A stretch of 37,818 bases of DNA. It comes from Myxococcota bacterium. Its GTDB lineage: Bacteria; Myxococcota; XYA12-FULL-58-9; JALHOP01. The notes beneath the pieces were generated by a model. It did no database searches and was not told the origin of the DNA. It saw only the letters and a program-made list of their open reading frames with translations. Shown here one piece after another: positions 1,213 through 37,745 of this stretch. Numbering within the stretch: position 1 is the first letter of the stretch; the number at the start of each line of letters is the position of its first letter. The position numbers were made by a program, and so were the translations under genes. The DNA lies in NCBI GenBank assembly GCA_041288095.1, contig JBGGMJ010000190.1, positions 1 through 37,818 on the forward strand, written 5' to 3'.

Positions 1213-2592
1213 ATGCTGACTCTCGCCGCCGTCCTCCTGATCGCCGCACCCTACGACCTCGACGCTCAAGCCAAGGCGTTCCGCGCCAACCTCGAAGCGT
1301 TCGTCAAAGCGGACACCACGAACCCGCCTGGTAACGAGGCGCGCATCGTCAAGCTGGTCGCCGCGCGACTCAAGAAAGAGGGCATTCCCTACACGGTGCA
1401 GGACTTCGCTCCCGGCCGGCAGAACATCATCGCCCGCATGAAGGGCTCGGGGGCCGAAAAACCCTTGCTGCTGCTCGCGCACATCGACGTCGTCGGCACC
1501 GCGAACCAAGCGTGGAGCACCGACCCGCACACGGTCGTCGAGAAAGACGGCTACCTCTACGGCCGCGGCGTCATGGACGACCTCGCGAGCGTGGTGCTCA
1601 ACCTCGAGACGTTCATCGCCCTGAAGCGCAACGGTGTGAAGCTCCGGCGCGATGTCATCCTCGCGCTCACGGGCGACGAGGAGTCGGGCGGCGCCGGCGC
1701 GCGCTATCTGCTCGAGCATGACGCGTCCATGAAAGAGGTCGGCCTCGTGCTCAACGAAGGCGGCGGCTTGGTGCGTGACGTTCCCGGAGGCAAGGCGCGC
1801 TTCGTGGCGCTCGAGGTGGCGCAGAAGACCTACCAGGACTTCGTGCTCACGACCGCCGGCATCACCGGCCACTCGTCGCTGCCGCAGAAGGACAACGCCA
1901 TCAATCGCCTCGCCGATGCCCTCGCGCGTCTCGCCAAGGCGGAGCAAGAGCCGCGGCTCATGCCCGCGACCCGCGCCTTCTTCAAGGAGCGCGCCCGCTT
2001 CGAGGACGGCGAGATGCAGAAGGCCATGAACGCCGTGGCCGCCGCGAAGGACAAGCTGCCGCGCGAGGCCGTGCAGGTGCTCGAGAAGAACCTCTTGTTT
2101 AGCGCGCTATTGCGGACAACGTGCGTCGCCACCATGGTCGAGGGCGGCACCAAAGCGAACGCCTTGCCGCCCAAGGCGAGCGCCAACGTCAACTGCCGCA
2201 TCTTGCCCGACGAGACCATCGAGCAGACGGAAGCCCGCTTGAAGACGATCATCGGCGACCCGCGGGTCGAGGTGACGCGCGCGCCCGAGTTCGGCACCAA
2301 CATCGCGTCTTCGCTCGAGGGTGAGTTTCCGACGGCGCTGAAGGAGCTGCTCGCCGAGAATCATCCCGGCGTGCCGATCATCCCCGCCGTCATGACCGGC
2401 GCTACCGACTCGCGCTTCTTCCGGCAGTACGGCATCCCCGCCTACGGCTTCGTGCCGATGGTCATCGTCGAAGGGGACGAAGCGCGTTGTCACGGGATCG
2501 ACGAGCGCATCGAGGTCGAGTCGATCCGGCCGGCGCTCGAGCTCAACATGAAGATGATGGTGAAGCTCGCGGCGCTCACACCCGGGAGCTGA
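1213..2592 (+). CDS. M20/M25/M40 family metallopeptidase, probably exported
   Basis: Zinc-ligand motifs LLAHIDVV, YGRGVMDD, GDEESGG, NEGG, GHSS, GATDSRFF and HGIDERI; short hydrophobic N-terminus. Confidence 0.92.
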   Translation: MLTLAAVLLIAAPYDLDAQAKAFRANLEAFVKADTTNPPGNEARIVKLVAARLKKEGIPYTVQDFAPGRQNIIARMKGSGAEKPLLLLAHIDVVGTANQAWSTDPHTVVEKDGYLYGRGVMDDLASVVLNLETFIALKRNGVKLRRDVILALTGDEESGGAGARYLLEHDASMKEVGLVLNEGGGLVRDVPGGKARFVALEVAQKTYQDFVLTTAGITGHSSLPQKDNAINRLADALARLAKAEQEPRLMPATRAFFKERARFEDGEMQKAMNAVAAAKDKLPREAVQVLEKNLLFSALLRTTCVATMVEGGTKANALPPKASANVNCRILPDETIEQTEARLKTIIGDPRVEVTRAPEFGTNIASSLEGEFPTALKELLAENHPGVPIIPAVMTGATDSRFFRQYGIPAYGFVPMVIVEGDEARCHGIDERIEVESIRPALELNMKMMVKLAALTPGS

Positions 2593-2985
2593 TCAACCCG
2601 GCAAGAATTCGCTGTACGACACGCGCGCAAGCTCTCGTGGGAGCTCGGCGTGCCGCGTCACCGCTTCGCACAAGACGATGAGCTTTTGGCGCAGGCCCGG
2701 TCGCTTCTCGACGAGCTCGCCGATGCGCGTGGCGAGCGGGTGCGCGACGGCGGTCTTGCTGGTGGCGACCACCAGCACTGGGGCGTCGAGGTTCACCTTG
2801 CTCTTCGGGTCGCGCAGGTCGGCGAATGCCCAGCGCCTATCGGTGGCGACCTGACGCAGCGCCGCGTTGGTCTGCTCGGCGGACGCTCCGGTGAAACCCA
2901 AGATCGCCACAGCTGACATGCCGCCCAGATCTTCGATCAGGCGGGCGGTCGGCGAAACCAGGTCGAGCTCGATGAGCTGCGTCAT
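2593..2985 (-). CDS. Hypothetical 130-aa protein, possibly a degenerate stand-alone AAA+/P-loop domain
   Basis: ATG overlaps the upstream TGA (ATGA, 2982-2985). Element order AVAILGFTGAS / PVLVV / KLIVLCE / ELPRELAR parallels an AAA core. Confidence 0.7.
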   Translation of the reverse strand: MTQLIELDLVSPTARLIEDLGGMSAVAILGFTGASAEQTNAALRQVATDRRWAFADLRDPKSKVNLDAPVLVVATSKTAVAHPLATRIGELVEKRPGLRQKLIVLCEAVTRHAELPRELARVSYSEFLPG

Positions 2986-4577
2986 CCGCCTAGTTGGTAC
3001 ACGCGCGAGGCGGTCGGTGTCACCATGATCGCGACGAGCTGGCCCCGGCGCTGGACGATGCGGGCGCGGCCGGCGACGTAGCTCGAGCTGCCGACATGTT
3101 CCCAGCGGCCGGACAGGCTGTTCAGGTCGAGCTGGAAGACCTCTTTGCTGGGCTTACCGTCGGCGTCGAAGCCGCCGACATAAGTGATCTTCTCCTCGGA
3201 GAGAAACACCTGGCCCATGCCCACTGCCTTGGGTAGCGCGGGCAGCGTGTACCATTTCTCGCCCTGCGCGGTGTCGCACAGGTAGAGCTTGCCGTCGCGC
3301 GCGTTGCCCGGTCCGACGACGAAGACCCGGCGGTCGCTGGCCACCGAAGCGCCGGTCGTGTCCTCGGGCGGGGCGCTGCGCTCGATCCACTTCTGATGCT
3401 GGAGGCGGCGGAAGGCGCGCTCGACGATCGGCATGCGGAAGTCATCGCCCTTCTTCTCTTCGGCGAGCTTGGTCACACCGTCGGTCACGTAGAGGTTGCG
3501 ATCGACGATGGCGATGACCGGCCAAGCCGCGGGCTTCGCCATCTCGGTACCATAGCGCCACTGGTCGGGGGCGAAACCGGTGTGCGCGGCGTTGCTCAAG
3601 GGATACGTGAAGACGGCTGCGCTCGTCTTGCCGTCGGTGTAAGCGCCGCCGTACAGCCGCACCTCGTCGTCGATCACGGCCATGGACACGCCGTTCGGCG
3701 GGAGCTTGTCGGGCGTCGCGATCTCGCGGAAGCACGCGCGTCCGTTGACGCTGTCTTCGATCCACAGGCGCGTCTGGCCGCCTTCGGTGCGCTGGCTCGT
3801 GAGCAGGATGATGCGGTCACGCCACACCGCGACTGAGCACAAGTCGTCGGCGAGACCGGTCGGCGGGCCGGGCGCTTCAGTCGCCTTGAGGCGCGGCGCG
3901 CAGAGGTTACGGAGCAGGCTCGAGAGAGGCTGCGCGCCGGTGCTGCCGGCGCCGAAGTTGAACAAGCCGCCGAGAAACGACTTCTCCACGACCTGGGGCG
4001 TCTGCGCGGTGCGTAAGAGCAGATCGACGACGGACACAGCCTCCTTGGCGAAGGGGCCTTCCTCGACGACATCGCTGCCGCTCATCAGCGTGGCGTCGCG
4101 GTCTTTGACGTAGAGCGTGGCCGGCTGCGGGCGATTTCCGCTATAGAAGACAGAAAGCCACTTGTCGAGCGCCGCGCTGCGCATCTCTTCTTGCTTCCAG
4201 GAGGGGTAGCGCTGGGTGCCCATGTCCGAGAAGGCGGAGGTCGCCTCCCTCAGGTAATCCTGAGTCACGCGGTCGCGTGCGACCGGAGGGAAGACCCAGG
4301 TCTCGCTGGCTCGCGAGCCTCTGCCGACGACGATGGGAAAGAGGTTGTCACCGGCGGCGATCGCGAACACCGTATCGTTGTTGCGGCGACCCATGGCGAG
4401 CCGCTCGGCGGGGCCGGCCGAGACCGCGTCGCACAATGGTCCGATGATCTTCTTGCGGATGGGCTGCAAGAGCTCGTGCGCGTCGCCAGGGGCCGCGGAG
4501 CGCAGCGTATCGACGCTGCGGCGCAGGGACGGGGCTTCGAAGATCGGAAATGGATGAGCGTTGATCATTGTGGTCAC
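2982..4577 (-). CDS. Kelch-repeat beta-propeller protein with an unknown ~230-aa N-terminal domain
   Basis: Kelch-like blades VRLYGG..VFTY..W, LYVTDG, VFVVGPG..W..LP and ITYVGGF..VFQLD..W. GTG start overlaps the giant gene's TGA (GTGA, 4574-4577); alternative ATG at 4568. Confidence 0.8.
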   Translation of the reverse strand: MTTMINAHPFPIFEAPSLRRSVDTLRSAAPGDAHELLQPIRKKIIGPLCDAVSAGPAERLAMGRRNNDTVFAIAAGDNLFPIVVGRGSRASETWVFPPVARDRVTQDYLREATSAFSDMGTQRYPSWKQEEMRSAALDKWLSVFYSGNRPQPATLYVKDRDATLMSGSDVVEEGPFAKEAVSVVDLLLRTAQTPQVVEKSFLGGLFNFGAGSTGAQPLSSLLRNLCAPRLKATEAPGPPTGLADDLCSVAVWRDRIILLTSQRTEGGQTRLWIEDSVNGRACFREIATPDKLPPNGVSMAVIDDEVRLYGGAYTDGKTSAAVFTYPLSNAAHTGFAPDQWRYGTEMAKPAAWPVIAIVDRNLYVTDGVTKLAEEKKGDDFRMPIVERAFRRLQHQKWIERSAPPEDTTGASVASDRRVFVVGPGNARDGKLYLCDTAQGEKWYTLPALPKAVGMGQVFLSEEKITYVGGFDADGKPSKEVFQLDLNSLSGRWEHVGSSSYVAGRARIVQRRGQLVAIMVTPTASRVYQLGG

Positions 4578-7500
4578 TTACCCGGCGACTGGTTGGAGCG
4601 TTCCCAGCAGCGTAGGGCGACGTTCGCGAACTGGTGGACGAATTGCGCGAGGTTGCGCGCGTACAGCGAGTTGTCACCGAACTGCAGTACGCCTTTGCAC
4701 TCGGCGCCGATGCCCGCGGCGACGACGCTGTAACCCTTGGCGACTGCTTTCTGCAGAGTGCTGTGCGCGCCCGGCAGACCTTGGCCGTCGCCGAACGAAA
4801 CGATCTGACCGATGTCGGCTTCGATCATGTCGAGCAGCGCCGCGCCTTCGGCGATGCCGCGCTCGTCGTCGGTGGCGTCGCCTTCGCAGCGGATCTGATG
4901 GAGCAGGTGCGCCTTGAGCTCCTCGTTCCATTCCTGGTCGAAGCCGGCGTGTAGACGCACGCGATCCGAGTAGCCGATGACCGCGATCTTGATGTTTTGA
5001 TCGACCGCCTTGAGCGCATCGCCGTAGGCAATCAGCGCCTCGATGTTGGCGCGCGCCTTGTCGCTGTCGCCCATGCTGGACGACTCGTCGATGGCGAGCA
5101 CCACTTGTGCGCGGATCTCGTCGCTGCCCTTGTTCTTCTTGAAGATGTTCAAGACCGGCATCTTTTGCGCGAGGCCCGACACGTAGAGCGGGATCTGATT
5201 TTCGTCGAGCAGTGGACCGGAGGTCTGCTTGCGCAGGCGCTCCATGCCGCCGGCGCGTGGCAGCGACATGGACACGGCGTCGCGCAGGCGCGAAGCGGTG
5301 CCGTCGCGCTGATGCTTCGCCCAGAGCTCGGCGACTTTTGCCCGGCAAGCGCGGTAGCTCGCGGTCGACGTCGCCTTCTGTTGGGCGAGCTCGAGCTGCT
5401 TGCACACGCCGTCGTAAATGGCGCGCGTGGCGAGCTGATCGACGTCGCGCGCGTCGCCGGTCGAGCCCAAGACTTCGTTCGGCTCGTTGGTGGTCGGGAG
5501 TGCCGCCTCGAGGCGCAGCGATGACGCCATGGGGCCGGGCGAGCCAGCCGCCGACAACGGGGTGTCGAGGATGGCCGTGCCGATGCCCGCGCCCTTCGCT
5601 TCGACGCGTCCGCGGAAGCGGCCTTGGTTGCTGACGAGGCACTTCGTGAGGAGGCTCGCCGCGCCGTCGACCGCGCCGCGGAAGGAGGTCACGTGCATGC
5701 CGAAATCGCCGGCGACCGACTTCAGGTTCTTGGCCTCGCTGAAGCCGAGCATGGCGACGCCGACGCCGTTGGCACGGGCTTGATCGATGAGGGCGCGGAT
5801 CTCGCCGGCGTTGTTCACCTGCGCGTCCGTCATGATGAGGATGAGCTTGTCGTTCGACTTCGATGTGAACTGGCCGAGCGCGGTGTTGATCGCTGGGATG
5901 ATGATGGTGCCGCCGTTGGCGTTGCCGCACACACGGTAGGTCGCGTCCGCCGAGTCCGGCGTCAGCGGCTGGCTCATCGGTTTGTGAACCCAGACCTGGG
6001 CGCCTTCGATGTTGGTGCCGGGGGCATAGCTGCCGACGCCGATGTTGTCGCCGAGGCCCAAGACCGAGCAGCTGCCTTCGCTGCCCAGCAAGGCGCCCAT
6101 GACCATGGCCACGACCGCTTGCTCGTGACGAATGACCTCGCCCTGGGTCGAGCCGGATTGATCGACGACGACCACGACTTCGCAGGGATACTTGCGCAGC
6201 ACCGCGCGCAGGTTGTCGACGAGCCCCTGGTTCTCGGCGCAGAAGCGCTCGAACGCGTTTTTCGGGCGAGTCTCGTCGGGGGAGGCACCCACCAGGCGCT
6301 GGGCGGCGAGGGCGGCCTGCATCTCGTCGACCGTGTTCTGCACCGCGACGTCGCTGAGCTCGATGACCTCGATCTTGCCGCGCCCGTTTGTCGGACCATC
6401 GCCGACCTTGTTCTGCGGCGCGTTGATTTCTCCCGTCGGCGTCTTCGGGTCCGCGAGGGGGGCATTGCCTTCGGGCTCGTCCGCGGGTGGTGCATCGACC
6501 GCTTGGACACCGGTGCCGTCGCCGGCCCCGCCTGCGATGCCTTCCCCGCCGGAGCCGACACCAACGGTTCCGCCGGCGGTGCCCGTGTCGGACTTGCCGC
6601 CGAACAGGGCGGTCAGCCCGCTGCTCGGGGGGCTCGTCTGGTCCTGCGACGGTGCCCAGGTGGCCTGGTGCACGCGACCCATGTTCGTCGTTGCAGCCTG
6701 CGAGGCCTCCGACTTGGGCGCCGAGACCTCGAGGCCGCGAATGTTGCCGCTGAAGTACTTCGACGCGACACTCGCGACTTGCTTGGCGACCGCGCGCGCC
6801 TCGACGTCGAGCAAGCCGAGCATCGCTTCGACCACCGTTTGGGCCTGCTGCAGGGTCGCGACGCTGGGTTTGTTCTTGCCGAGCTTCGCCAAGTACTCGC
6901 GCAGCTTGAGAGCCATGCCCTCGAAGTGATTGCTCGATGCCGCGTCGCCGGCGTAGCGCTCGGCCTCGGCACGGAGCTCGCGGAGCTTGTCGGATGCCTT
7001 CTCGAGCTCGCTACCGAGGCCGGGCACGCTCTGGGCCTTCTGGACCGCGTCCATGAGCGACACGACCGCGGCCGCGACGCGTCCGGAGTAGGGGCCCTTG
7101 GTCATGGCGTTGGCGGCGCCGGCGGCATCGAGGAGCTCGTTGATCAGCGCTGCCGGCGAACCCGAGGTCGAGTCGAACGCGGCGAGCGCGCGCTTGGAAG
7201 CGCCGAGGCGGGCGATCGCCGCTTCGCGGTCCTTCAGATACGGCGCGACGCCGCTGGTGAAATGGTCGGCGACGCGAGCAGCGTCGTCGTTGAAGAGCTC
7301 ACCGTGGAGGGCGCGTAGATGCGATTCGATGTCGCGCCCGGCACTGGCGAGCGGACCCATCAGGTCGGCGACGAACGGCGCGACGCGGTCCGCCGCGACG
7401 TCGATGGCGGCGACCAGTTTGTGGCGTTCGAGCGACGACAGACAAACTTCGTCCACGGCCTCGGCGAGCTTGAGATAGTCGGCGAGCTGGCGGTCGGTCA

Positions 7501-10500
7501 CCTTCGTCTGGATGTCGAGGCGGCCGCCGAGCTCGGTGAACGCGGCGGCGACTTCGGCGAGACAACGCTCCGCGGTAGCGGTCGGCACGTATTGCGCGAG
7601 CTCGTCGCGGAACCCGGCCGCTTTGGTGGACAGCTCGCGGGCGCCCGCTGCTTCGTTGCCGGTAAGGCCCTCGCCGAGCTGGGCGAGACGCGCCGCCATG
7701 CTGTGGAACAAAGCGCGGCGCGAATACGCGGTGATCGCCGCCGAGTCGTTGCCGAGCGCGTCGATGATCTCGGCGAGCCTCGCCAGAGCCATGGCATCTT
7801 GGCCACCGGCGCTCGAGTCTCCCGACTTCGGCGCGAGCTCTTGAACCTCATCGAGCTGCGAACGCGCGCTCATGGCGAAGCGCGTGACCTCGCGCGCCAG
7901 GACGGTGCTGTCGAAGACGAGCTTCAGGTCGCGCCCGGCTTCGACGATCTTCGCGAGCTTGGCGGTCGCGGCCGCCGGGAAGAGCTCCGAAGGCTCGACC
8001 ACCGCCAGCACGCGGGTCAACGCTTCGAGGGCGGCGTCGAGGCTGGTCTGCAGGGCAGGGATGTCGGCGTCGCTGCCGCGGGCGAGCGCGTCGAGGGCAT
8101 CTTTCGCCGTGTTGAAGGTCGCGGAAGCCCGCTGCCAGGTGCTGCCCTGCGTCGCCTTCTCCAAGGCCGCGAGCAAGGTGCGTGCTTCGGTGTGCGATCG
8201 CGACAGGCGGTCGCCCGCGGCGACTGTCCGCTCGAGCACATCGTCCATGGCGCGGCGCACCTGGTCGCGCGTCGAATCGCTCTCGCGCCGGGTAACGTGC
8301 TGCGGCGGCTTCAGACCGACGGTCGACAAATCGAGGAGGCGTAGCTCGGTGTCACGCACCGTCATCACTTGGGCTGGCGCGGGTGAAACGATGCGCGACA
8401 GCGTGGTCGGCCCCATGCCCTTTTCACGGTCGCTCGCGAAGGCCTCGCCGTCGAGGGCGTTGCGGATGCGCTCACCGTGGCTACCGCCGCGACCTGTCCC
8501 CGAGGACAGCATCTCGAATATGGCGTCGACGCCGGCGTCCTGCAGGGTTACCGACTTGGCGGTCGTCTGGGCGCCGAGGAAGGCGCGCTTGAGCTCGATC
8601 ATCTCCTGCTCGAGCTGTTGTAGCTGCGCGTCCGGCTTAGCGGACTTGGCCGCCTCTTGATAGCGTTGCAGAGCCTGGTCGAGCGCCGTGATGCAGGCCC
8701 GAGCCGACTTGTCGCGCAGTGACTGCTGGCGGATGACCTGCGCGGCGCGCATGGTCGCTTCGATGACGTTGGCGAAGCCGTAGGCGACACCCGACTTCGC
8801 GGCGAACCTCGAGGAAAGATCGTCCGCGACTTGGGAGAACGCGGCGACTCGCATCAACAGGTTGCGCGCCGTGGCATCCGGACCCAAGCGCGCGATGGAA
8901 GCTTGCAGCGCGCCGGAGATCTCGACGTTTTCGCGGGCCGCCTGATGGAGCGCGGCGTAGCGCGACGAAGCGAGACCCAGCGTGTCGGAGCTCGCGAGCA
9001 CGTCTTCGATGGCGCCGCAGCTGGCGATATGGCTCTCGAGCGGGCTGATGTCCGGCAGGCCGGCCATGGTGTGGTTGACGCGCTCTTCGATCTTGGCGAG
9101 CGCTTCTTCGACGAGCTTGCAGGCTTCGTCACGGTTCGGCGCTTCGTGCTGGCGCATGTAGAGCGGCATGCCGCCGTCGTCGATCATGCGCCCGAAGCCG
9201 AAGCGGCGGCGCAACCCGTCGCCCCAGGCGCGTGCTTCACCTTCCGCGGTGCGCAAGGCGGTGCGCGCGTCTTCGATGGCCCGCGTCGTGGTCGTGTCCG
9301 CGGCATCTCCGAGCTGAGTCGCGAGGAGTTGGAGATCCTTGCCGAGGGCAATGGCCGCCATCGCGTTGCGGCTGGCGCTGCGCTCGACGGCGCTCTCCAC
9401 GCGTTGCCGATAGGCGGTCTCGTATTCGGCGGCCTTCTTCTTCTCGAGCTCGGCCAAGACCTTGCGCTTGGTCTCGGCGATGCGCGACCCGCTCTCTTGT
9501 TCGAGGCGGCCCAGAGCGTCTTCGTATCTGGCTTGAGCAGCGCTCGACCGCGCCTGCTGAGTCGGCTGCGCAAGGCCGGTGTCACCCAAGGCCAAGTCGT
9601 AATCGGCAAAGAACTTGTCGACCGGCGGGGCCTTGCGATCCATCGTCTCTTGCGCGAGCTCGGCGAACAGTTCGGCGCGCGCTGCTTCGACCTTGTCGCG
9701 CTCTTCGGCTTTAGCTTGCTGCGTTGCCTCGGCCTCGAGCTCGGCCTTGCTGGCCCGGTGGGGTGCGTCGATTTTGAGCGGGCCCGACGGCAGCTGGAGG
9801 AACTCGGCGCGCGAGAGATCGCTCGCGTTCTTCTTCACGCGGCCGAGCGTCGCCAACATCTCCTTGGCGGTGCGGAGGGTCTTCACCTGGCCGAGGTGAC
9901 CCAGGAGCTCGTCGACCACTTCACGGGTGCCACGCTGAGCGTCGGCGACGGCGCGGCGGAGATCAGCGGACTGTTCGGCGATGCGGATGCCTTCGAGCGC
10001 CGAGCCGGCGGCGCGCAGTGCCGACAGCAAGCCGGAGACTTCGTCGCGGGTTGCGCCGCGGTCGTCGTGTGCCTCGCGCAAAGCATCGAGCGCGTTGTGC
10101 AGCTCGGCGAGGTGGCCGCGCAGCTGGTGGTGGTTCTTGAACAGCGGCGTGCCGGTGACCCAGTCCCAGCGCTCGATGACCTTCTCGTAGCGCTCCTGCA
10201 GGACGTTGTCCGTGCCACCGCCGTGCTGGCGGTAGGCCTCGAGGGCGTCCTCGACGGAGTCGCGGACCTGTCGGATCGTGCCTTCGGCGGCGCTTGCTTC
10301 GAAGCGCTCGGTGACCGACGCGAGCTCGCGGCGGGCGGCATCCGCGGCTTCGGAACCGAAACCGGCGCAGAGCGCGAAGGCGTCAGCGTAGCGGCTGATG
10401 ATCTCGCAGCGGTGCTCGAGGTCCCAGAGGCGCGCGCCGCGCATGAACTCGAGCACGTCGCCTTCGAGCGGCTTGCTCGCAAAGCCGCTCTCGTCGATGG

Positions 10501-13500
10501 CCTTGATCAGGCGCTCCGCCGCGTTCTTGGTCTTGACGGTGATCTTGGTAACGCCGGGCTCGCTGTCGAGGAGCTTGCTGCACGCGCGCTCGATCTCGGC
10601 GGGCAACAGACCGCCGGTGGGGAGGCGCGCCACGAGCATGCGTAGGTCGGCCTCGGTGCCGCCATCGATCAAGCGGGTCACGGCTTCCTTGGTCGATTTG
10701 AGGACCGCGGCGGTGAGCACGGCGGCGACGCCGTCGTAGTCTTTCTTGAGTGTTGCGAGGTGCGGGTTCGCGACGATGTCGACCGCGTTCGAGCTCTGCG
10801 CGGTGAGAATGCCCGACGTGCCGTAGAGCTGCGCCAAGCACGTTGCGACAGCGGCGGCGACGCCGTCGTGCACGGGCAAGCGCTCGACCGGAGCGAGGAC
10901 GTGGCGCACGATGGCGCTGGTGACGATATCTTGCAGGTCGGCGTCGGAGTTCGCCGCGGCGCGTGCGACGTCGCTCGCGAGGAACAGTAGACGTTGTCCG
11001 TCAAAGCGGATGAGCTGCCGGTCCTGCAGGCTGACGCCGGTGATGCTCGCGTCGGCGGCGGCGATCAGGTCGACGAAAGCAGTAGCCATGGCGGAGCCGC
11101 CGGGCACGCCGGCGAGGATGTGGCTGGTCAAGGCGATGAGATCGTGGCGCTGCGTGACGGGCTCGGCGCGGACGCGGGTACAGGCCGCCGCGAGCTCCTG
11201 CGGGAGCGGCGGGTCGCCGGTGGAGGTCTGGAGCACCAAGCGCAAGCGCTTCTGCTGGATCTCGAGCTTGCCGTCGCGAATGCGTTCGACGTTGTCGGTC
11301 CCGGCGACCTCCGACAGGCGCATGAGCAAGTCGCGCGGCAGGCGCGCCGCGTTGCGGATGAGCAGGATCGAGGCTTCGCGCTGGGCTCGCCAAACGAGAC
11401 CTTCGTAGCGCTCGAAGCGACCGTCGTCGTTCTGCACCAAGCCGCCGAAGAGTGACGACTCGGAGAGCTGCTCGTTGCCTTCGATCTCGATGATCTCCGA
11501 CGCCGACAGGCGCGCCATGCTCTGGATGGCGGCGCGGCCGACGAAGGGATCGCCATGGATCTGCAGCGACTCGGCGAACTGCGCCGCCGCGAACTCCTTG
11601 CTCTGGATCTCGTCGAGGCCTTCGACGCGGGGCAAGATGGCTTCGTGCTGCGGCACGCCCTTGCGAATGCCGCGGCTGTCGCGGGGCACCGACCATTCGC
11701 CGAAGCGGACGAAATGTTGAGTCGCCGAGACGTCGGTGCCGGCGGGTGCCGCGATGCCTTCGCAGATGAAGCGTTTGGTGAGGTGCGAGAAGAGCGCGCG
11801 GTCGCTCTCGTTGTCGAAGCGCTCGCCGTAGACGTCGACGATGAGGCGGTGCAGGGTCTCGACTTCGTCGGTGACCGCGCCTTGCGCCGTGAGGTGCTTC
11901 AAGCGGCGTGCGACGGCTTCGGCGTCGCGGTTCAGGAACGAGCCGATGGCGAGGGCAGAGGCAAACTCGCCCTTACGCAAGAGCTCGTTCATGCAGATGT
12001 GGAACCGCGCCAACAGGCGCGCCGAGTCGACGGAGATCTGCGTGCGGTGATGGATGTTCTCGAGCAGCTCGGAGGCGGCGCGGGACAAGACCTCTTGGGT
12101 CGGCGCCTGCACCCGTGTCGACAGCAGCGGAGTCAGCAGGCGGTTTTCGAGCGCCGGCGAGAACTCGTGCGGCGAGCCCGGCTTGCGCAGCATGATCATG
12201 CGGAAGTTGGGATTGGCCTTGATGGTACGGGCCGACCGCGGCAAGTCGATCGATTGCCGGCCGTCACCGAGCGAGTTCAGGCGCTCGAGCTTGGAGCTGG
12301 GGATGGAGCCGCAGCCGCGCAGGACGAGGAGGTGGCCGTTCTGAACCGCCTGGGCGATCTCCTGCATCTCGGGCGTGAAGCCGCCCTTCACCGTCGGATC
12401 GTCGGTGAGGACCAGCTTCTCGATGAGCTGCTCGATGTCGGTGTTCGGAGTGAGGGTGACCACCACGAGGCGCTTGCCGAGCAGACGCGCGTACTCGCGT
12501 AGGGTCTCCATCGACTCGCCGTTGGGATCGTCGGTGAGCGACATCGGCCGGCCGCGGCCCATGACGTCGGCGTCGGCGATGCACGAGAGGTTTTGCACGC
12601 GCGCCGGCGTGAGCGGGAAGCGCTCGTTCGACGGACGCCACGGGGTCTCGGCGCCGAGCGGCACTCGGGTGTTGCCGAAGTAGACGGCGTCGCCTTCTTG
12701 GCGCGGCACGAGTAGGTCGACGGCTTCGCTCGCGGCGTGGCCAAAGGTGCGGGTGATCCGCGCCAGTGCCTCACCCTCGAGGTCACGCGGCATCTTGGAG
12801 AGGAGGGTGAGCTCGGCGGCGCGCATGGCCGACCCGGCGACGCCCGTGGTGCGTCGCTTCTCGATGTAGAGCTCGAGGAACGAGGAGAGGACGCGCGGCG
12901 TGAGCGGTGAAGCGCCCGCGCCCGCTTGCAGGGTGCGCAGATCGTCGAAGAAGGAGACCAGGCGCGCCACTTCCTCCGCCGAGGTCAGGCGATCGCCGAC
13001 GACGATGTTGGCGTTCGCGACCTTCATTGCCTCGACCGACAACGAGCCGGCCGGGACCATGCCGGCGACGCGCGCCGCCGACTGCGGATCCTTGGCTTTG
13101 ACGAGCAGCGCCGAGATGAGCTCGCGCAGCGGCGCGAACTTGTCGCCTTTGAACTGCCACAAAGCGAGTGCGAGGGCGCGCTCTTGTTCCGGCGTGAAGG
13201 CGAAGATTGGCGTCGTGGCGAGCGCGAGCACGAGCGTCTTCTGGAAGTGAGCCTCGTCGCGCTTGCCGGCGCCGACCAGCCCCTTCAAGAACGTCATCAT
13301 GCCCTTGGGCGGATCGACGTCGATGCAGGCGAGCTTCAGGGCATCGCCGAAGGCGTTTCCGGGCCTGCAGATCTGCAGCAAGGCGTCGCGTGCGCTATTG
13401 CGGTCAGCCGCTTCGAAGCTCTGCGGCGAGCGCAGGAGCTCACGGGGCTCCCCGTCGCAGTAGTCGCGCTGAGCGATCTCGTTGAGCTCGTCGAAGCCGC

Positions 13501-16500
13501 GTGGCTCGCGAATGCCGACGATCACCAAGCGGCTGGCTTCGGGATCGGAGAAGCCGTCGGCGCGGATGTCGTCGCCGTTGGTGGTGAAGATCTGGCGGAA
13601 CTCGGGATGCCAGCGATCTTCGGGCGGGCCGCCGCGGCGGCGCAGGGTGCGCGACGGACGCGACGGGATCTTGATCTGCGAGCCTTCGGTGACCGGGTTG
13701 AGCGACTCGCGCGTCTGATTGGGGAGAGTCAGGAGCTCGTCGCCGCAGTACCAGGCGCCGATCTGCGCCGCGATATCGAGCGGCGACTCTTGGAAGCGCA
13801 CCTCGCCCTCGGGCGTGAGCACCGTCGTGCCGAAGATGTTCTCCTCGGACATGTCGGCGTGGTACGCCTGCTCGAGCAGCGGTTGGTTCAAGTGGTGTGC
13901 GAGATAGCGGACGAGCATCGTCTTGCCCGAGCCGGTGATGCCGACGATGGCGAGCGGCTGATCGAGCTCGAGGGCGAGCAGCGCATCCTCGAGGAAGTCG
14001 AGCTGCGCCCCGATGGGCTCGCCGATGCGATCCTTGCTGGGCACCATGGCTTGGTGCACCGGGTTATCGAGCTTGCGGACGGGATAACGCGCGACGCCGA
14101 CCTTGAGGTACTCGACGCCGTCGACGGTGATACGCTCGACGCCATTGGGTCGCGTGAGCTCGTGGACGTCGGAGCCGAAGTGGCGCTTGATGAGTGTCTC
14201 GAAGACGCGCTGCGCGGTGTCCGGCGCCTGGAGCAGGCCGCGAACGAGCCGCATGGTCTCTCGACCCAGCACACGGCGCTGCTCGTTCGGATCGGTGATG
14301 CCGTCACGCTTGATCAGGTGCTCGGCGCGTCGCGCCGCTTTGAGCATGTCGCGCTCGGTGCAGGTGAGCGGCCCGAACGTCTTGCCGAGCTCGCCACGAC
14401 GCTCGTTCCACACCGCTTCGAGGTCGACGAAGAACTTGGCGATGGTGAGGACCGGGTCGAACGACTTGTCGGAGAAAAAGCCACCGGCGCTGGTGCGCCA
14501 CTGGCGTGCTAGGCCGCACTGCGATGCGACGATGTCGGCGCGCTCGTTGACCGGCTTTTCGCGCACCATGACGCGGAACATGCAGTCGTCGATGACGGGC
14601 GGCTGTTCCTTGCGGCCGCGGGTGCCGAGTGGATTCTCCGCGAAGTAGAGAATCGAAGCGCCGATGGAGCGAGGCAACCCGGTGTCGGGGTCGATGACGG
14701 CGCGGCGGTGATCGAGCAGGGACTTCATGCTCATCATCGCTTCGGTGCTGAGGTTGCGCTCGTCGCCGATCCACGCGCCTTCGGTCTCGAGCGTCGCCTT
14801 GATCAGCGGCCCGCTGACCATCTGGAACTGCACGCCCTGCTCGGTCTTCACTGGGCTCAAACCGCCGTAGAGGTCCGACGCTTCGGTGGCCGCCGAGAAA
14901 TTGTAACGCTCCGGCGTCCTGTCCGCGATGGCGGACCAGAGTATGCCGAGCACGGTTTTGCCGGCGGCGGCCTTACCAACGGTGAGCACTGGACGCTCGA
15001 GCTTGTAGGCGAGGGCCAGCGGCAGCAGGGTGTCGGCCATGCTGGGTGTGAGGTCGAAGCCGGTGGTGGCGACGCGTTGGCTCACGTCGGCTTGGCTTAA
15101 GCCCATGACCCGCATCCACACCGGCGGTGTGCCGTCGGCGAACCGCGGAAGCTTGGCGAGCGCCGGGCTCTTGGCCTCGTCGAAGAGCAAGCGAGCCGCG
15201 TGCGCTACCGCTTGGTCAGCTGGCACGTGCGCGGCAAGGAGCGTCGCGGCGCCGGCGAAGTCGCGGGAGCGTTGCAGCTTGAGCAAACCGATCTGGGGGG
15301 CTTCGGCGTGGATCTCGGTGGCGACGCGCTCGATGAGGGCGCGCAGCTCGGGCGAGGCAGCGGCCGGGATGAGGCTGAAAGCGTCGCTCAAGCTCGGTGA
15401 GTCGAAGCGGATCTCGGTTAGCAAGGCGCGCTCGCGCGCCGGGGGTGTGCGCCGCGTCCGGTCCGCTCCAGCGGTCGCCGAGAAGTAGATGCGACTCTCG
15501 GGGTGGACCGGAACGGTCACGGCCTGACCATCTTTCATGATGGTCAGCGAGGTCTTCTCGACGAGCCGTATGAGGGCCTCCTGGCGCTCGAGCGACAGGT
15601 GGTCGATGTGGTCGAAATAGAGGATCTTGCCGTTCAGCAACGCATCGGTGATGACGCCGGGCACGAACTCGACGCTGCCGTCCTTCTTGAAGACTGGGCG
15701 CTCGATGAGGCTCTGCGGATCGACGCCCGGGTGGCAGGTGACGGTGACGAGGTCGCGCCCGAAGCGGCGAGCGAGCTCGTTCACGAGGCTCGTGGAACCC
15801 GCCTGACCGGGAGCGGTGAACATGACCGGCTCGCCGGCGAGATGCGCGGCTTCGGCCTGCGCCATGGCTTCGACCTGCGCGCCGATGGGCGTCCAGCCGC
15901 CGTCTGGGGTCGCCGCCGTGAGGGGCTGCGGGGCGGGATGACCGTCGTTCGTGATCACCGCGCGGAGCGCCGCCTGTGAGCCTTCGCTCGCGAGGCGCGT
16001 ACCGTAGATGCCCCAGATTGCGTTCGAGATGTCCTGCGGTTGCGGCGTCGGCAGGTTCTTCAGACGCCGCGCGACGCGCTCGAGCATCGGGTAAGCGAGC
16101 GGAAACCCGCGGCCGAAGTCGATCTGCTGCTCGGGCTGGTCGCTCGTTTGCCCAGCCTTGATGGTCTCGTGTTTGTCGGCGAGCTTGCTCGCCAGTGCAC
16201 GGCTGATGCCGACGCGCTCGCTGAGCAGGCGTACGTGATCGTCGCGCGTATAAGCGCTCACCTCGGTCAGAGCGCAGACGGAGGTCAGCTCCGCGCTGCA
16301 ACGCGCGCGGTTGCTGGTCATCAGTACGAGGCGAAAATCGGGGTGCACCGGCACGATCTTGCCGGAGACTGGGTGGTGGAACTCCGCCACGCCCTTGGCG
16401 AGACCGGAGAGGATCGCGAGCACGTCTTTTTCCGCCTGCTCGAGACACTCGGCGACGAATACACCGCCGTTCATGATGCACTCGGTGAGCGGCCCGTGGT

Positions 16501-17047
16501 GGACACGCAAGCGTCCCTGGGCGTCAGGGCGCAGGGCGCCGGCGAGCGAGTCGAGCGAGGTAATGCGCGAGATGCGTTGGTGACGGTAGGGAGTGCCGGC
16601 GACCTCGAAGAACCAGCGGGCCGTGGCGCCGCCATCGACGCCTTCGGGCAGCGAGACCAGCGCCGGGACGCCCGACTTGAGGACGTCCGCGAGTGAGCGG
16701 ATGACCTCTTCCTGGGGCCGCAGGATAGTCAGCTCGGCGGCTTTGTCCGACGGAACCGGCAGCGTCAACGTGCCGACACGTAGCTCGCCGTTGCCGTGCT
16801 CGACCTTCTGGGCCGCTTTCAGCGCGCTCTCGAGGCCCTCTTGGGTGACTCGGGTCTCACGTGCCTCGTTGACGGCACGATGGGTGCGGTCAAGGACGTC
16901 AGCGACGACGTTTTGCACCTTCTGTTGGCGTGCGCCCTCGGGTTGGTCCGGGGCCTTCTGCTGGTCGCGCTCCGGGGTCTGGGCGTTGTGATCGCCTGCC
17001 GTCGGGCGCTGCCATGGTCGAAATCCTGCTCCAGCGGTATCGGTCAT
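4574..17047 (-). CDS. Giant midasin (Rea1/Mdn1)-like protein: six AAA+ modules, helical linker, two vWA/MIDAS domains (4157 aa)
   Basis: Uninterrupted 12.5-kb ORF. Walker A GKAAAGKT (14954-14977) and GITGSGKT (13919-13942); Walker B WIGDE and WYCGDE. Four further degenerate modules, including VHPDFRL, VHPESRI, ANPNFRM and SPALENR signatures. MIDAS motifs DQSGS (6149-6163) and DESSS (5075-5089). Confidence 0.88.
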   Translation of the reverse strand: MTDTAGAGFRPWQRPTAGDHNAQTPERDQQKAPDQPEGARQQKVQNVVADVLDRTHRAVNEARETRVTQEGLESALKAAQKVEHGNGELRVGTLTLPVPSDKAAELTILRPQEEVIRSLADVLKSGVPALVSLPEGVDGGATARWFFEVAGTPYRHQRISRITSLDSLAGALRPDAQGRLRVHHGPLTECIMNGGVFVAECLEQAEKDVLAILSGLAKGVAEFHHPVSGKIVPVHPDFRLVLMTSNRARCSAELTSVCALTEVSAYTRDDHVRLLSERVGISRALASKLADKHETIKAGQTSDQPEQQIDFGRGFPLAYPMLERVARRLKNLPTPQPQDISNAIWGIYGTRLASEGSQAALRAVITNDGHPAPQPLTAATPDGGWTPIGAQVEAMAQAEAAHLAGEPVMFTAPGQAGSTSLVNELARRFGRDLVTVTCHPGVDPQSLIERPVFKKDGSVEFVPGVITDALLNGKILYFDHIDHLSLERQEALIRLVEKTSLTIMKDGQAVTVPVHPESRIYFSATAGADRTRRTPPARERALLTEIRFDSPSLSDAFSLIPAAASPELRALIERVATEIHAEAPQIGLLKLQRSRDFAGAATLLAAHVPADQAVAHAARLLFDEAKSPALAKLPRFADGTPPVWMRVMGLSQADVSQRVATTGFDLTPSMADTLLPLALAYKLERPVLTVGKAAAGKTVLGILWSAIADRTPERYNFSAATEASDLYGGLSPVKTEQGVQFQMVSGPLIKATLETEGAWIGDERNLSTEAMMSMKSLLDHRRAVIDPDTGLPRSIGASILYFAENPLGTRGRKEQPPVIDDCMFRVMVREKPVNERADIVASQCGLARQWRTSAGGFFSDKSFDPVLTIAKFFVDLEAVWNERRGELGKTFGPLTCTERDMLKAARRAEHLIKRDGITDPNEQRRVLGRETMRLVRGLLQAPDTAQRVFETLIKRHFGSDVHELTRPNGVERITVDGVEYLKVGVARYPVRKLDNPVHQAMVPSKDRIGEPIGAQLDFLEDALLALELDQPLAIVGITGSGKTMLVRYLAHHLNQPLLEQAYHADMSEENIFGTTVLTPEGEVRFQESPLDIAAQIGAWYCGDELLTLPNQTRESLNPVTEGSQIKIPSRPSRTLRRRGGPPEDRWHPEFRQIFTTNGDDIRADGFSDPEASRLVIVGIREPRGFDELNEIAQRDYCDGEPRELLRSPQSFEAADRNSARDALLQICRPGNAFGDALKLACIDVDPPKGMMTFLKGLVGAGKRDEAHFQKTLVLALATTPIFAFTPEQERALALALWQFKGDKFAPLRELISALLVKAKDPQSAARVAGMVPAGSLSVEAMKVANANIVVGDRLTSAEEVARLVSFFDDLRTLQAGAGASPLTPRVLSSFLELYIEKRRTTGVAGSAMRAAELTLLSKMPRDLEGEALARITRTFGHAASEAVDLLVPRQEGDAVYFGNTRVPLGAETPWRPSNERFPLTPARVQNLSCIADADVMGRGRPMSLTDDPNGESMETLREYARLLGKRLVVVTLTPNTDIEQLIEKLVLTDDPTVKGGFTPEMQEIAQAVQNGHLLVLRGCGSIPSSKLERLNSLGDGRQSIDLPRSARTIKANPNFRMIMLRKPGSPHEFSPALENRLLTPLLSTRVQAPTQEVLSRAASELLENIHHRTQISVDSARLLARFHICMNELLRKGEFASALAIGSFLNRDAEAVARRLKHLTAQGAVTDEVETLHRLIVDVYGERFDNESDRALFSHLTKRFICEGIAAPAGTDVSATQHFVRFGEWSVPRDSRGIRKGVPQHEAILPRVEGLDEIQSKEFAAAQFAESLQIHGDPFVGRAAIQSMARLSASEIIEIEGNEQLSESSLFGGLVQNDDGRFERYEGLVWRAQREASILLIRNAARLPRDLLMRLSEVAGTDNVERIRDGKLEIQQKRLRLVLQTSTGDPPLPQELAAACTRVRAEPVTQRHDLIALTSHILAGVPGGSAMATAFVDLIAAADASITGVSLQDRQLIRFDGQRLLFLASDVARAAANSDADLQDIVTSAIVRHVLAPVERLPVHDGVAAAVATCLAQLYGTSGILTAQSSNAVDIVANPHLATLKKDYDGVAAVLTAAVLKSTKEAVTRLIDGGTEADLRMLVARLPTGGLLPAEIERACSKLLDSEPGVTKITVKTKNAAERLIKAIDESGFASKPLEGDVLEFMRGARLWDLEHRCEIISRYADAFALCAGFGSEAADAARRELASVTERFEASAAEGTIRQVRDSVEDALEAYRQHGGGTDNVLQERYEKVIERWDWVTGTPLFKNHHQLRGHLAELHNALDALREAHDDRGATRDEVSGLLSALRAAGSALEGIRIAEQSADLRRAVADAQRGTREVVDELLGHLGQVKTLRTAKEMLATLGRVKKNASDLSRAEFLQLPSGPLKIDAPHRASKAELEAEATQQAKAEERDKVEAARAELFAELAQETMDRKAPPVDKFFADYDLALGDTGLAQPTQQARSSAAQARYEDALGRLEQESGSRIAETKRKVLAELEKKKAAEYETAYRQRVESAVERSASRNAMAAIALGKDLQLLATQLGDAADTTTTRAIEDARTALRTAEGEARAWGDGLRRRFGFGRMIDDGGMPLYMRQHEAPNRDEACKLVEEALAKIEERVNHTMAGLPDISPLESHIASCGAIEDVLASSDTLGLASSRYAALHQAARENVEISGALQASIARLGPDATARNLLMRVAAFSQVADDLSSRFAAKSGVAYGFANVIEATMRAAQVIRQQSLRDKSARACITALDQALQRYQEAAKSAKPDAQLQQLEQEMIELKRAFLGAQTTAKSVTLQDAGVDAIFEMLSSGTGRGGSHGERIRNALDGEAFASDREKGMGPTTLSRIVSPAPAQVMTVRDTELRLLDLSTVGLKPPQHVTRRESDSTRDQVRRAMDDVLERTVAAGDRLSRSHTEARTLLAALEKATQGSTWQRASATFNTAKDALDALARGSDADIPALQTSLDAALEALTRVLAVVEPSELFPAAATAKLAKIVEAGRDLKLVFDSTVLAREVTRFAMSARSQLDEVQELAPKSGDSSAGGQDAMALARLAEIIDALGNDSAAITAYSRRALFHSMAARLAQLGEGLTGNEAAGARELSTKAAGFRDELAQYVPTATAERCLAEVAAAFTELGGRLDIQTKVTDRQLADYLKLAEAVDEVCLSSLERHKLVAAIDVAADRVAPFVADLMGPLASAGRDIESHLRALHGELFNDDAARVADHFTSGVAPYLKDREAAIARLGASKRALAAFDSTSGSPAALINELLDAAGAANAMTKGPYSGRVAAAVVSLMDAVQKAQSVPGLGSELEKASDKLRELRAEAERYAGDAASSNHFEGMALKLREYLAKLGKNKPSVATLQQAQTVVEAMLGLLDVEARAVAKQVASVASKYFSGNIRGLEVSAPKSEASQAATTNMGRVHQATWAPSQDQTSPPSSGLTALFGGKSDTGTAGGTVGVGSGGEGIAGGAGDGTGVQAVDAPPADEPEGNAPLADPKTPTGEINAPQNKVGDGPTNGRGKIEVIELSDVAVQNTVDEMQAALAAQRLVGASPDETRPKNAFERFCAENQGLVDNLRAVLRKYPCEVVVVVDQSGSTQGEVIRHEQAVVAMVMGALLGSEGSCSVLGLGDNIGVGSYAPGTNIEGAQVWVHKPMSQPLTPDSADATYRVCGNANGGTIIIPAINTALGQFTSKSNDKLILIMTDAQVNNAGEIRALIDQARANGVGVAMLGFSEAKNLKSVAGDFGMHVTSFRGAVDGAASLLTKCLVSNQGRFRGRVEAKGAGIGTAILDTPLSAAGSPGPMASSLRLEAALPTTNEPNEVLGSTGDARDVDQLATRAIYDGVCKQLELAQQKATSTASYRACRAKVAELWAKHQRDGTASRLRDAVSMSLPRAGGMERLRKQTSGPLLDENQIPLYVSGLAQKMPVLNIFKKNKGSDEIRAQVVLAIDESSSMGDSDKARANIEALIAYGDALKAVDQNIKIAVIGYSDRVRLHAGFDQEWNEELKAHLLHQIRCEGDATDDERGIAEGAALLDMIEADIGQIVSFGDGQGLPGAHSTLQKAVAKGYSVVAAGIGAECKGVLQFGDNSLYARNLAQFVHQFANVALRCWERSNQSPGK

Positions 17048-17268
17048 GGCTCGTGTTCGTCGTGGGTGATGATGTCCGATTGGCTGCGTGGGAGCGCCGC
17101 CTAAGCATCGGAGTTATCGTTCAGTCCGCCCCAGGGTTGCGCCGTGCGACATGACAGACCCCCCGCGATCGGGTGTCAGAGTGGCACCGGGAAGATCGGG
17201 GTCAGAAGCACCCCGACGACGTGTCGGCCCGATAACAGGAATCGAGACCAACGAAATTGGGGTTAGTC

Positions 17269-17922: not shown

Positions 17923-17964
17923 GCCTAGCCAAAGGTCCCGGATCGGCGTAAACGACCGGCACTC

Positions 17965-27587: not shown

Positions 27588-27685
27588 CCAAGGACTATAG
27601 CCCGGGCGCCGAGGTTGCGCTCACAACCCCGGGTTGAGGGCGCGTGGGGGCCCTGGCATGCTCTCAGTGGCCGTCCAAAAGGCAC

Positions 27686-32100: not shown

Positions 32101-32167
32101 GTGCATGAGTATAGCCCAGGCGAGGTGGGCGGTTGTTCCGGGCTCGACTTCATTTCATAGTCCCGCC

Positions 32168-37675: not shown

Positions 37676-37710
37676 CCCCGAGGTTGTGGCCCAAACTCGC
37701 GCGGCGAGCA

Positions 37711-37745
37711 AAAGGCCCCCCGCGGCTCCAGCCGCTCAGGCCTTT
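37711..37745 (-). terminator. Hairpin, possible terminator after the upstream partial gene
   Basis: AAAGGCC..GCGGCT-CC-AGCCGC..GGCCTTT inverted repeat with only a short T run on the minus strand. Confidence 0.35.

Follow-up and report, generated by a model that had tools for sequence, protein, structure and literature searches.

A candidate operon of Myxococcota-type bacteria encoding a giant protein of midasin-like layout, a Kelch-propeller protein and a small AAA+-like protein

To our knowledge, single-chain rings of six AAA+ modules, such as those of dynein, midasin and RNF213, are regarded as eukaryotic inventions. The partner proteins Rsa4/NLE1 and Ytm1/WDR12 consist of an N-terminal ubiquitin-like (UBL) domain followed by a C-terminal beta-propeller, which is of the WD40 type in Rsa4 and Ytm1, and they bind the metal-ion-dependent adhesion site (MIDAS) of the midasin Rea1 through a glutamate. 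The accessible portion of the published work on Mdn1 describes it as employing its MIDAS domain on two substrates, and the accessible portion of PMC3495828 derives the six-module protein from MoxR, at an early point of eukaryote evolution. In the full-text literature searched, whose coverage leaves out most subscription journals, no description was found of a bacterial or prokaryotic midasin or of six-module AAA+ proteins in Myxococcota, and the accessible part of a preprint on giant bacterial genes (10.1101/2023.11.21.568195) holds nothing on the protein family described here. In this study, a three-gene operon was investigated in a stretch of 37,818 nt (hereafter the window) from a Myxococcota bacterium (XYA12-FULL-58-9; JALHOP01), assembly GCA_041288095.1, contig JBGGMJ010000190.1, positions 1-37,818 of the forward strand. 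As given in the list of open reading frames (ORFs), the three genes lie on the minus strand and encode a giant protein of 4157 amino acids (4574..17047, ATG start), a Kelch-like protein of 531 amino acids (2982..4577, GTG start) and a mini protein of 130 amino acids (2593..2985, ATG start). The reading that we favour, with a probability of roughly 55%, is that this trio forms the core that is conserved in a rare operon of Myxococcota type, in which a mechanoenzyme of midasin architecture is served by a dedicated two-protein accessory module.

The giant (P0001) is one chain of six AAA_5 modules, a long linker, a tether and two C-terminal von Willebrand factor A (vWA) domains. Pfam recognised AAA_5 in it with an E-value of 5e-45, together with VWA and VWA_2, and the six AAA_5 stretches were resolved by Pfam scans of protein segments. 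A protein search over 5.8 billion clusters returned six other giants of 4102-4245 amino acids, after which the next matches were eukaryotic midasins (E 1e-27 and 1e-25), and the conservation of motifs was judged by aligning all seven full-length members from bacteria, namely the window giant and its six homologues. In each of the seven giants, modules 3 and 4 are the only ones to retain an intact Walker A (GK[ST]) and Walker B (DE): module 3 (residues 687-791, 14675..14989, AAA_5 E 2.8e-4) carries GKAAAGKT and DE, and module 4 (residues 1032-1160, 13568..13954, E 4e-15) carries GITGSGKT and DE. Module 1 (residues 153-249, 16301..16591, E 0.008, under the Pfam cut-off) has a degenerate P-loop with no GK[ST]; module 2 (residues 417-514, 15506..15799, E 2.5e-10) displays in all seven giants a P-loop GQxGxT that lacks the lysine, and DH at the Walker B position; module 5 (residues 1516-1636, 12140..12502, E 2e-6) possesses neither Walker A nor Walker B and shows a weak match to AAA_lid_7, the midasin lid; and module 6 (residues 1842-1927, 11267..11524, E 0.007, again under the cut-off) is degenerate. 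Judged from these motifs, modules 3 and 4 would be the only ones competent for ATP hydrolysis.

The ring modules are followed by a linker of about 1,400 amino acids (residues 2080-3440, 6728..10810), which is rich in Ala, Leu, Arg and Glu and matched no Pfam family at E<=1 in the segment scans, and by a low-complexity tether (residues 3470-3560, 6368..6640) rich in Gly, Pro, Ala and Thr (Gly 24%, D+E 12%), whose length varies among the giants, as seen in a gappy alignment. The first vWA domain, vWA1 (residues 3624-3775, 5723..6178, Pfam VWA), carries the MIDAS motif D-Q-S-G-S ... T ... D, with DxSxS at 3629, and keeps it in all seven giants. The second, vWA2 (residues 3982-4088, 4784..5104, Pfam VWA_2), carries D-E-S-S-S ... 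T ... D, with DxSxS at 3987, a motif that is kept in six of the seven and lost in P0021. Between the two domains, just before vWA2, all seven giants harbor the peptide RKQxSGPLxDExQ(L/I)PLY (residues 3939-3955, 5183..5233), in which Q3941, S3943, G3944, P3945, D3948, E3949 and Q3951 are invariant. Kelch propellers of the Keap1/KLHL type bind short, often acidic peptides, and the peptide before vWA2 resembles an acidic linear motif of the type bound by Kelch propellers or by MIDAS sites; it is a possible docking or autoinhibitory motif.

Among all sequences of the Protein Data Bank (PDB), the best solved relatives of the giant are midasins, with an E-value of 1e-35 summed over several modules, and its single modules match the bacterial NorQ and CbbQ with E-values of 7e-10 to 6e-8. 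Per module, NorQ reaches 39 bits versus 34 bits for the best single Rea1 module; since the per-module match to NorQ is equally good, the high total score of midasin reflects the repeated architecture. With hhalign, the profile of the seven giants gave one colinear alignment with fungal midasin over 960 columns (probability 99.7%, E 3.7e-27), in a register that places giant modules 1-4 on midasin modules 3-6, that is, shifted by two modules, and the top scores of all giant module profiles fall on modules 3 and 5 of midasin, where they are higher than on one another. The Walker A motif GK[ST] is found in two of six modules in the giants, compared with all six in both eukaryotic midasins examined (P0022 and P0023). 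No alignment between giant and midasin was obtained outside the ring and MIDAS regions, and in the latter residues 3905-4104 of the giant align weakly with residues 4572-4772 of Rea1, its MIDAS domain (domain E ~1). By its sequence, the giant resembles midasin in layout and falls within the same AAA+ clade, and the two may or may not share a six-module ancestor.

The second gene encodes a protein (P0002) for which a database search found eight homologues, and AlphaFold2, run on an alignment of 11 family sequences, gave a model with a mean predicted local distance difference test score (pLDDT) of 80.9. The model displays an N-terminal alpha/beta domain (residues 7-195, 3993..4559; helix2-strand4-helix2-strand3-helix), a disordered hinge (residues 196-214) and a six-bladed Kelch beta-propeller (residues 218-531, 2985..3926) with 24 strands in residues 231-530. 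In Foldseek, the top 50 PDB matches of the propeller are Kelch-type, mostly Keap1, with KLHL20 and the designed SAKe proteins also present; E-values go down to 2.8e-15 and the template-modelling score TMt lies between 0.64 and 0.72, at a sequence identity of about 15%. The Kelch propeller that the initial annotation had called in this protein is in this way borne out at the level of the fold, as a Keap1-like propeller of six blades. Conservation within the family is highest in a loop of the propeller, GPGNARDGKxxxCDTAQ, in which D435 is invariant and D428 nearly so. The N-terminal domain is homologous over its full length in all loci that carry the Kelch gene, and it has no acidic residue among its invariant positions in the family alignment (A3), which are G76, A177, R189 and P194. 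It matched no family in Pfam or NCBIfam, UBL families included, and residues 1-240 gave no usable match in the Atlas.

The third protein (P0003) is modelled by AlphaFold2 as a five-stranded alpha/beta domain with a pLDDT of 86.7 and a predicted template-modelling score (pTM) of 0.83. Its 50 top listed PDB neighbours are all AAA+ proteins, among them DnaC, NSF, p97, katanin, Msp1, RFC, Vps4 and dynein, but they match only weakly, with E-values of 1e-3 to 5e-3 and a TMq of 0.33-0.52. In a viral structure library the named rows are mostly AAA+ or clamp-loader proteins with similarly weak scores, and among the Atlas models the neighbours are again mostly of AAA+ type. None of the 52 family members examined has a Walker A motif, no conserved acidic residue occurs at the Walker B position of the family, and the protein ends after the core at 130 amino acids and is devoid of a helical lid domain. 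Nothing meaningful was returned for it from Pfam, NCBIfam or PADLOC, and its profile matched PDB sequences at chance level only (E >= 0.28). The mini protein is therefore best described, from its model, as a nucleotide-free AAA+-core-like domain. What the initial annotation had called a mini-AAA appears to keep the AAA+ alpha/beta core fold, by weak structural matches, and lacks the ATPase motifs. Of the domain calls, the six AAA_5 modules, the two vWA domains and the Kelch propeller stand, and the 130-amino-acid protein is AAA+-like in fold only.

A profile search over 1.84 billion representatives (at 50% identity) returned 74 proteins of the mini family at E <= 1e-3, of which 55 were at E <= 1e-10. 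Most of them are stand-alone proteins of 120-155 amino acids, and in three the domain forms the C-terminal part of a protein that also has an FRG domain, namely P0055 (530 amino acids), P0091 (783 amino acids) and P0096 (758 amino acids). By hhalign, the mini domain of P0055 is recovered with a probability of 99.3% (E 5e-20) and that of P0091 with 95%, and the match of P0096 is weaker. In view of these FRG fusions, the mini domain looks like a portable module. P0055 was also considered as a Kelch-mini fusion, which was ruled out by hhalign against the Kelch alignment A3 (probability 0.3%).

The three minus-strand genes and both of their stop/start overlaps were reproduced at every coordinate in the ORF list and in reads of the junctions. 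The GC content at third codon positions (GC3) of the giant, Kelch and mini genes is 0.87, 0.86 and 0.85, respectively, in a window of 67% GC, and this codon-position pattern is typical of genes, so that the three are taken as real genes. The giant-Kelch junction, read on the minus strand as ggtaaGTGAccacaATGatc and also given as ggtaaGTGAccacaATG, contains the overlap GTGA at 4574..4577, and the Kelch-mini junction, ggcggATGAcgcag with the core ggcggATGAcg, contains the overlap ATGA at 2982..2985. Of six full-length homologues that the database holds for the 531-amino-acid protein, five (P0004-P0006, P0008 and P0010) start at a methionine that is aligned with residue 4 in alignment A3, and because of this the Kelch gene may start instead at the ATG at 4568-4566, 5 nt past the giant stop and with no overlap. 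Both overlaps that the initial annotation had reported are thus present in the sequence, and the first of them is uncertain as a gene boundary, the homologues favouring ATG 4568; coupled translation of the giant and Kelch genes would fit the 4-nt overlap and the 5-nt spacer alike.

The promoter scan found no sigma-70-like promoter within the operon, and the terminator scan found one terminator-like site within it, on the opposite strand, which is no more than the shuffled expectation; at both operon ends nothing in either scan exceeds that expectation. The stop codon of the mini gene (2595-2593, minus strand) abuts the stop codon of a convergent M20/M28 peptidase gene (2590-2592, plus strand) with zero intergenic bases, and this stop-stop junction has no terminator-like hairpin. 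The idea of a fused or split gene was ruled out, as Kelch and giant are separate ORFs in all six related loci with a Kelch gene.

For the comparison of synteny, a profile of the last 278 residues of the giant (A1) was scanned against one genome per species in 185,579 species. We observed 70 stretches that fit a pattern, of which seven encode a relative of the giant (L001-L007). All seven come from metagenome-assembled genomes: five are labelled Myxococcota, Myxococcales or Deltaproteobacteria, L004 is labelled 'delta proteobacterium' and L001 'Bdellovibrionales'. By tblastn and ORF analysis, the Kelch gene and then the mini gene lie downstream of the giant in six of the seven loci, so the question left by the initial annotation, whether homologues of the giant lack these neighbours, is answered in favour of the linkage. 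The start of the mini gene overlaps or abuts the Kelch stop in all six loci that carry the pair (GTGA, ATGA or TGATG), and since it recurs in all of them, this tight junction is more than a chance feature of one genome. The divergence is parallel across the loci, with identities falling from 89 to 41% for the giant C-terminus, from 73 to 26% for Kelch and from 77 to 22-29% for mini. Apart from L001 and L002, four loci keep the Kelch-mini pair downstream of the giant despite other gene orders and flanks, at 22-35% identity to the window proteins.

The loci differ in what accompanies the pair. In L001 and L002 the giant, Kelch and mini genes are followed by the same convergent M20 peptidase as in the window. 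In L003, L004 and L006 the giant is followed by a DcrB-like gene of about 150 amino acids, a ClpB-like two-ring AAA+ gene of 885-908 amino acids, Kelch (508-512 amino acids) and mini (144-153 amino acids), and in L007 by a DcrB-like gene, Kelch (542 amino acids) and mini (147 amino acids). In the window itself, tblastn detected none of the genes that the extended operons add, the DcrB-like and ClpB-like ones included. The initial annotation had described a self-contained three-gene system, which is true for the clade of the window, L001 and L002, and fails in the four distant loci, all of which add the DcrB-like gene and three of which also add the ClpB-like gene. On the gene content of these loci, the trio is a conserved core and the window version its minimal operon form, not always self-contained.

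Several observations on the extended operons are recorded here in their own right. The DcrB-like gene lies directly 3' of the giant (L003:10822-11271, L004:10822-11271, L006:10809-11273 and L007:10693-11265); DcrB corresponds to PF08786, formerly DUF1795, and only the L006 protein scores above the Pfam cut-off. Some DUF1795 proteins are chaperones for effectors of type VI secretion. After mini, three more conserved genes of about 1000, 240 and 370 amino acids are found in L003, L004 and L006, the first at L003:15922-18849, L004:15964-18936 and L006:15644-18922 with two further genes behind each. None of the three proteins matched a Pfam family, and the protein of about 1000 amino acids shows weak matches to SMC-like PADLOC models, probably of coiled-coil type. 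In L007, an 813-amino-acid protein (15703-18144, plus strand) displays a ClpB-D2-type AAA+ domain (AAA_2, ClpB_D2-small) fused to a C-terminal Kelch propeller, which is an independent link of Kelch propellers to AAA+ unfoldases in the system of the giant. The operon end of the same locus encodes an 881-amino-acid protein (18148-20790, plus strand) with a sub-threshold match to the N- and C-terminal domains of anthrax lethal factor (an ATLF-like zincin; 24.4 versus a cut-off of 27.4 bits); it could be a protease component, the match being too weak to call.

In the mechanism that we favour, ATP turnover in the ring, at modules 3 and 4, would remodel the linker and thereby pull on the cargo of the tethered MIDAS domains, by analogy with Rea1/Mdn1. 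The Kelch-mini pair would not be a mere neighbour but the receptor or adaptor of this machine. Its propeller would bind a peptide ligand that belongs to a client protein or else to the giant, for example the invariant SGPLxDExQ before vWA2, and the dead AAA+-like mini domain would couple the pair to an AAA+ partner. In the larger operon versions, the ClpB-like unfoldase and the small DcrB-like protein probably process the extracted clients. A propeller-peptide or MIDAS-acidic-loop contact is conceivable, because an invariant acidic peptide lies by vWA2 and an invariant acidic loop is found in Kelch. Again, as the Kelch gene directly follows the ClpB-like gene and a Kelch-AAA+ fusion occurs in L007, the Kelch-mini pair may serve AAA+ unfoldases generally, with mini as a plausible element to dock on an AAA+ ring. 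A complex prediction with Kelch (A3), mini (A2), residues 3880-4157 of the giant (vWA2) and Mg scored 0.00 in two runs and counts neither way. As to the purpose of the operon, our best guess is that it remodels or takes apart some large protein assembly, and that it possibly does so in the context of conflict or defence.

A number of points weigh against this reading. The linker of the giant has no sequence similarity to the Rea1 linker in the PDB search or by hhalign, and the force-generating mechanism is transferred from Rea1/Mdn1 by analogy only. Two of the six AAA_5 segments, 1 and 6, score under the Pfam cut-off, the other four lying above or near it. For the propeller, the Kelch-type matches in Pfam are all under cut-off (NANM 26.3 versus 45, Kelch_6 17.7 versus 25.3 and Kelch_4 15.2 versus 21.6 bits), and the family profile reaches at best E 1.6e-4 among PDB sequences (KLHDC2). 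The mini family, with its 74 representatives, outnumbers the giants found and is also fused to FRG, so it is not exclusive to the operon of the giant. In one of the seven loci, L005, neither the Kelch-mini pair nor a DcrB-like or ClpB-like gene is present within the 14 kb examined, on a contig that ends 3.3 kb past the giant and has about 10.6 kb of upstream sequence outside those 14 kb. Furthermore, L001 and L002 are orthologous to the window, as seen from their common M20 peptidase flank, and so the three amount together to one evolutionary observation.

The alternative that fares best, which we nevertheless consider doubtful, is that the operon is an anti-phage or anti-invader conflict system in the style of MoxR-vWA thresholding, in which the giant would be an NTP-dependent gatekeeper and Kelch and mini would sense or recruit a protein of the invader or an effector. 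It draws on the mini domain at the C-terminus of the FRG proteins P0055, P0091 and, more weakly, P0096, and on the FRG part of P0055, which matches the PADLOC candidate PDC-S15 (E 1e-15); in the accessible text of PMC9503650, FRG is a predicted antiviral effector of the ART superfamily. This fusion is a weak lead to a role in biological conflict. The ClpB-like neighbours match the PADLOC models DolB and PDC-M37B, although these matches may be generic AAA_2 similarity, and the sub-threshold zincin match in the L007 protein points in the same direction. By the labels of the seven loci, the giant family is confined to lineages of social bacteria, and the accessible part of PMC7159879 has MoxR-vWA conflict systems concentrating in multicellular prokaryotes. 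The window trio, however, has no meaningful PADLOC match (best E 0.015), and nothing in the window version is recognisable as an effector, be it a nuclease, a protease, an NADase or the like. The flanks are housekeeping genes, the M20 peptidase flank is also present in L001 and L002, and the GC content is flat, so that no island signature is seen; tblastn with the Kelch protein and the last 958 residues of the giant found no plasmid copy. A mobile defence island is disfavoured because of the housekeeping flanks, the flat GC, the missing PADLOC match and the absence of a plasmid copy.

An unlikely explanation, closest to what the initial annotation had put forward, is that the 531-amino-acid protein is a direct MIDAS ligand in the manner of Rsa4/NLE1 and Ytm1/WDR12, placing an acidic side chain in the metal site of a vWA domain, with the trio as a self-contained machine. 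It agrees with the full MIDAS motifs that vWA1 and vWA2 retain, with an order of N-terminal domain and propeller that mirrors Rsa4/Ytm1, with the strict linkage in six of seven loci and with the acidic loop as the most conserved stretch of Kelch. Of the proposed likeness to Rsa4/Ytm1, the C-terminal propeller remains; the conserved acidic residues D428 and D435 sit in that propeller, whereas the N-terminal domain has no family match, UBL included, and no invariant acidic residue. In addition, the DxSxS of vWA2 is lost in one giant (P0021), and four of the seven loci are not self-contained. The Kelch gene stands directly behind the ClpB-like gene in three loci and a Kelch-ClpB-type fusion is present in L007, and because of these two facts an unfoldase is at least as likely a partner of Kelch as a MIDAS domain.

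Quite improbable, in our estimation, is the most far-reaching version, in which a single-chain six-AAA+ ring would use its tethered MIDAS domains to pull a propeller-bearing ligand and its dead-AAA+ companion off a large assembly of the cell or of an invader, as a prokaryotic counterpart, possibly a forerunner, of Rea1 with Rsa4/Ytm1. If it were true, single-chain rings of the dynein/midasin type with propeller ligands would have arisen in Myxococcota-type bacteria, contrary to the placement given in the accessible part of PMC3495828. That Kelch and mini are unrelated passengers beside a large AAA+ gene, their overlaps being compact packing in a GC-rich genome, is highly implausible, for although 4-nt overlaps are common in bacterial operons and the neighbours in the orthologous L001 and L002 could be kept by descent alone, four more loci, with other gene orders and flanks, have the pair downstream of their giant at 22-35% identity.

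Returning to the favoured reading of a conserved core around a midasin-like giant, a bacterial midasin layout with two dedicated partners would offer a tractable prokaryotic model of a ring that pulls on ligands via MIDAS. The giant would also provide a test case for a bacterial origin of the six-module architecture versus convergence. Again, the pair would represent a new accessory module, made of a Kelch receptor and a nucleotide-free AAA+-like domain, the latter being also present on predicted antiviral FRG effectors.

In the surroundings, the operon is flanked by genes for glutathione peroxidase, M20 peptidase and the large chain of carbamoyl-phosphate synthase (CarB), and the GC content is flat across the operon region. 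An ORF of 221 amino acids (17257-17922, plus strand), divergent from the giant start, has no Pfam family, a GC3 of 0.78 and a moderate coding signal; it might be a regulator or no gene. Farther away, the window encodes a protein of 760 amino acids with Ser/Thr protein kinase and adenylate/guanylate cyclase catalytic domains (27644-29926, plus strand), a DUF1554 protein of 433 amino acids (26286-27587, minus strand) and a protein of 1231 amino acids with teneurin-type NHL propeller repeats and DUF4215 repeats (34016-37711, minus strand). Teneurin-type NHL/DUF4215 and DUF1554 proteins are typical of large myxobacterial-type genomes, in agreement with the taxonomic labels of the related loci. Between 31321 and 33109 overlapping ORFs occur on both strands with ambiguous coding signal, making the gene calls uncertain; one of them (32021-33085, plus strand) has a match to collagen triple helix repeats and a GC3 of 0.73, and another (31321-32106, minus strand) has a weak match to DUF7107.

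Compared with described systems, the trio shares features with several families and coincides with none of those considered below. With the MoxR-vWA pairs NorQ-NorD, CbbQ-CbbO and RavA-ViaA, and with the ternary conflict systems covered in the accessible part of PMC7159879, it has in common a MoxR-clade ATPase together with a MIDAS-type vWA. The beta-propeller subtype of the ternary systems, as far as the available text of Kaur et al. 2020 (PMC7159879) presents it, is also similar in its propeller, its preference for social bacteria and its lack of a conventional effector. In the same accessible text, the ATPase of these systems is a single-module homo-hexamer, the vWA is a separate protein fused to a propeller of about four blades, and the third component of the ternary systems is a TPR protein with a propeller, whereas the window has no TPR component. 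In contrast, the window giant fuses six modules and two vWA domains in one chain of 4157 amino acids, and its six-bladed Kelch propeller belongs to a separate protein that is paired with a dead AAA+-like protein; no fused giant of this kind is described in the accessible portion of Kaur et al. 2020 (PMC7159879).

With regard to the Keap1/KLHL receptors, the likeness lies in the six-bladed propeller, with a TMt of about 0.7 to the Kelch domains of Keap1 and KLHL20; the window protein differs from them in having neither a BTB/BACK domain nor a ubiquitin-ligase context, and its N-terminal domain is unrelated to theirs. The degenerate AAA+ subunits, such as clamp-loader delta and Hda-like proteins, resemble the mini protein in their alpha/beta core, and RFC, DnaC, Hda and DNA polymerase III delta are among its structural neighbours; however, mini comprises only about 130 residues, possesses neither lid nor Walker A/B, and its structural matches are weak (E ~1e-3).

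The comparison with midasin extends furthest. The giant differs from it in being bacterial, in carrying two vWA domains versus one, in a module match that is offset by two with no one-to-one correspondence of modules in the scores, in a tether that is Gly/Pro-rich and not D/E-rich, and in a linker of about 1,400 amino acids that is not alignable to the midasin linker of about 1,700 amino acids. Its partner bears a Kelch propeller, whereas Rsa4 and Ytm1 have WD40 propellers, and the N-terminal domain of that partner matches no UBL family; the dead AAA+-like third protein of the bacterial operon is without a counterpart among midasin partners. On the other hand, the giant, like midasin, unites in one polypeptide six AAA_5-type modules and, behind them, a linker of great length, a tether of low complexity and, at the C-terminus, vWA of the MIDAS type, and its partner likewise ends in a beta-propeller.

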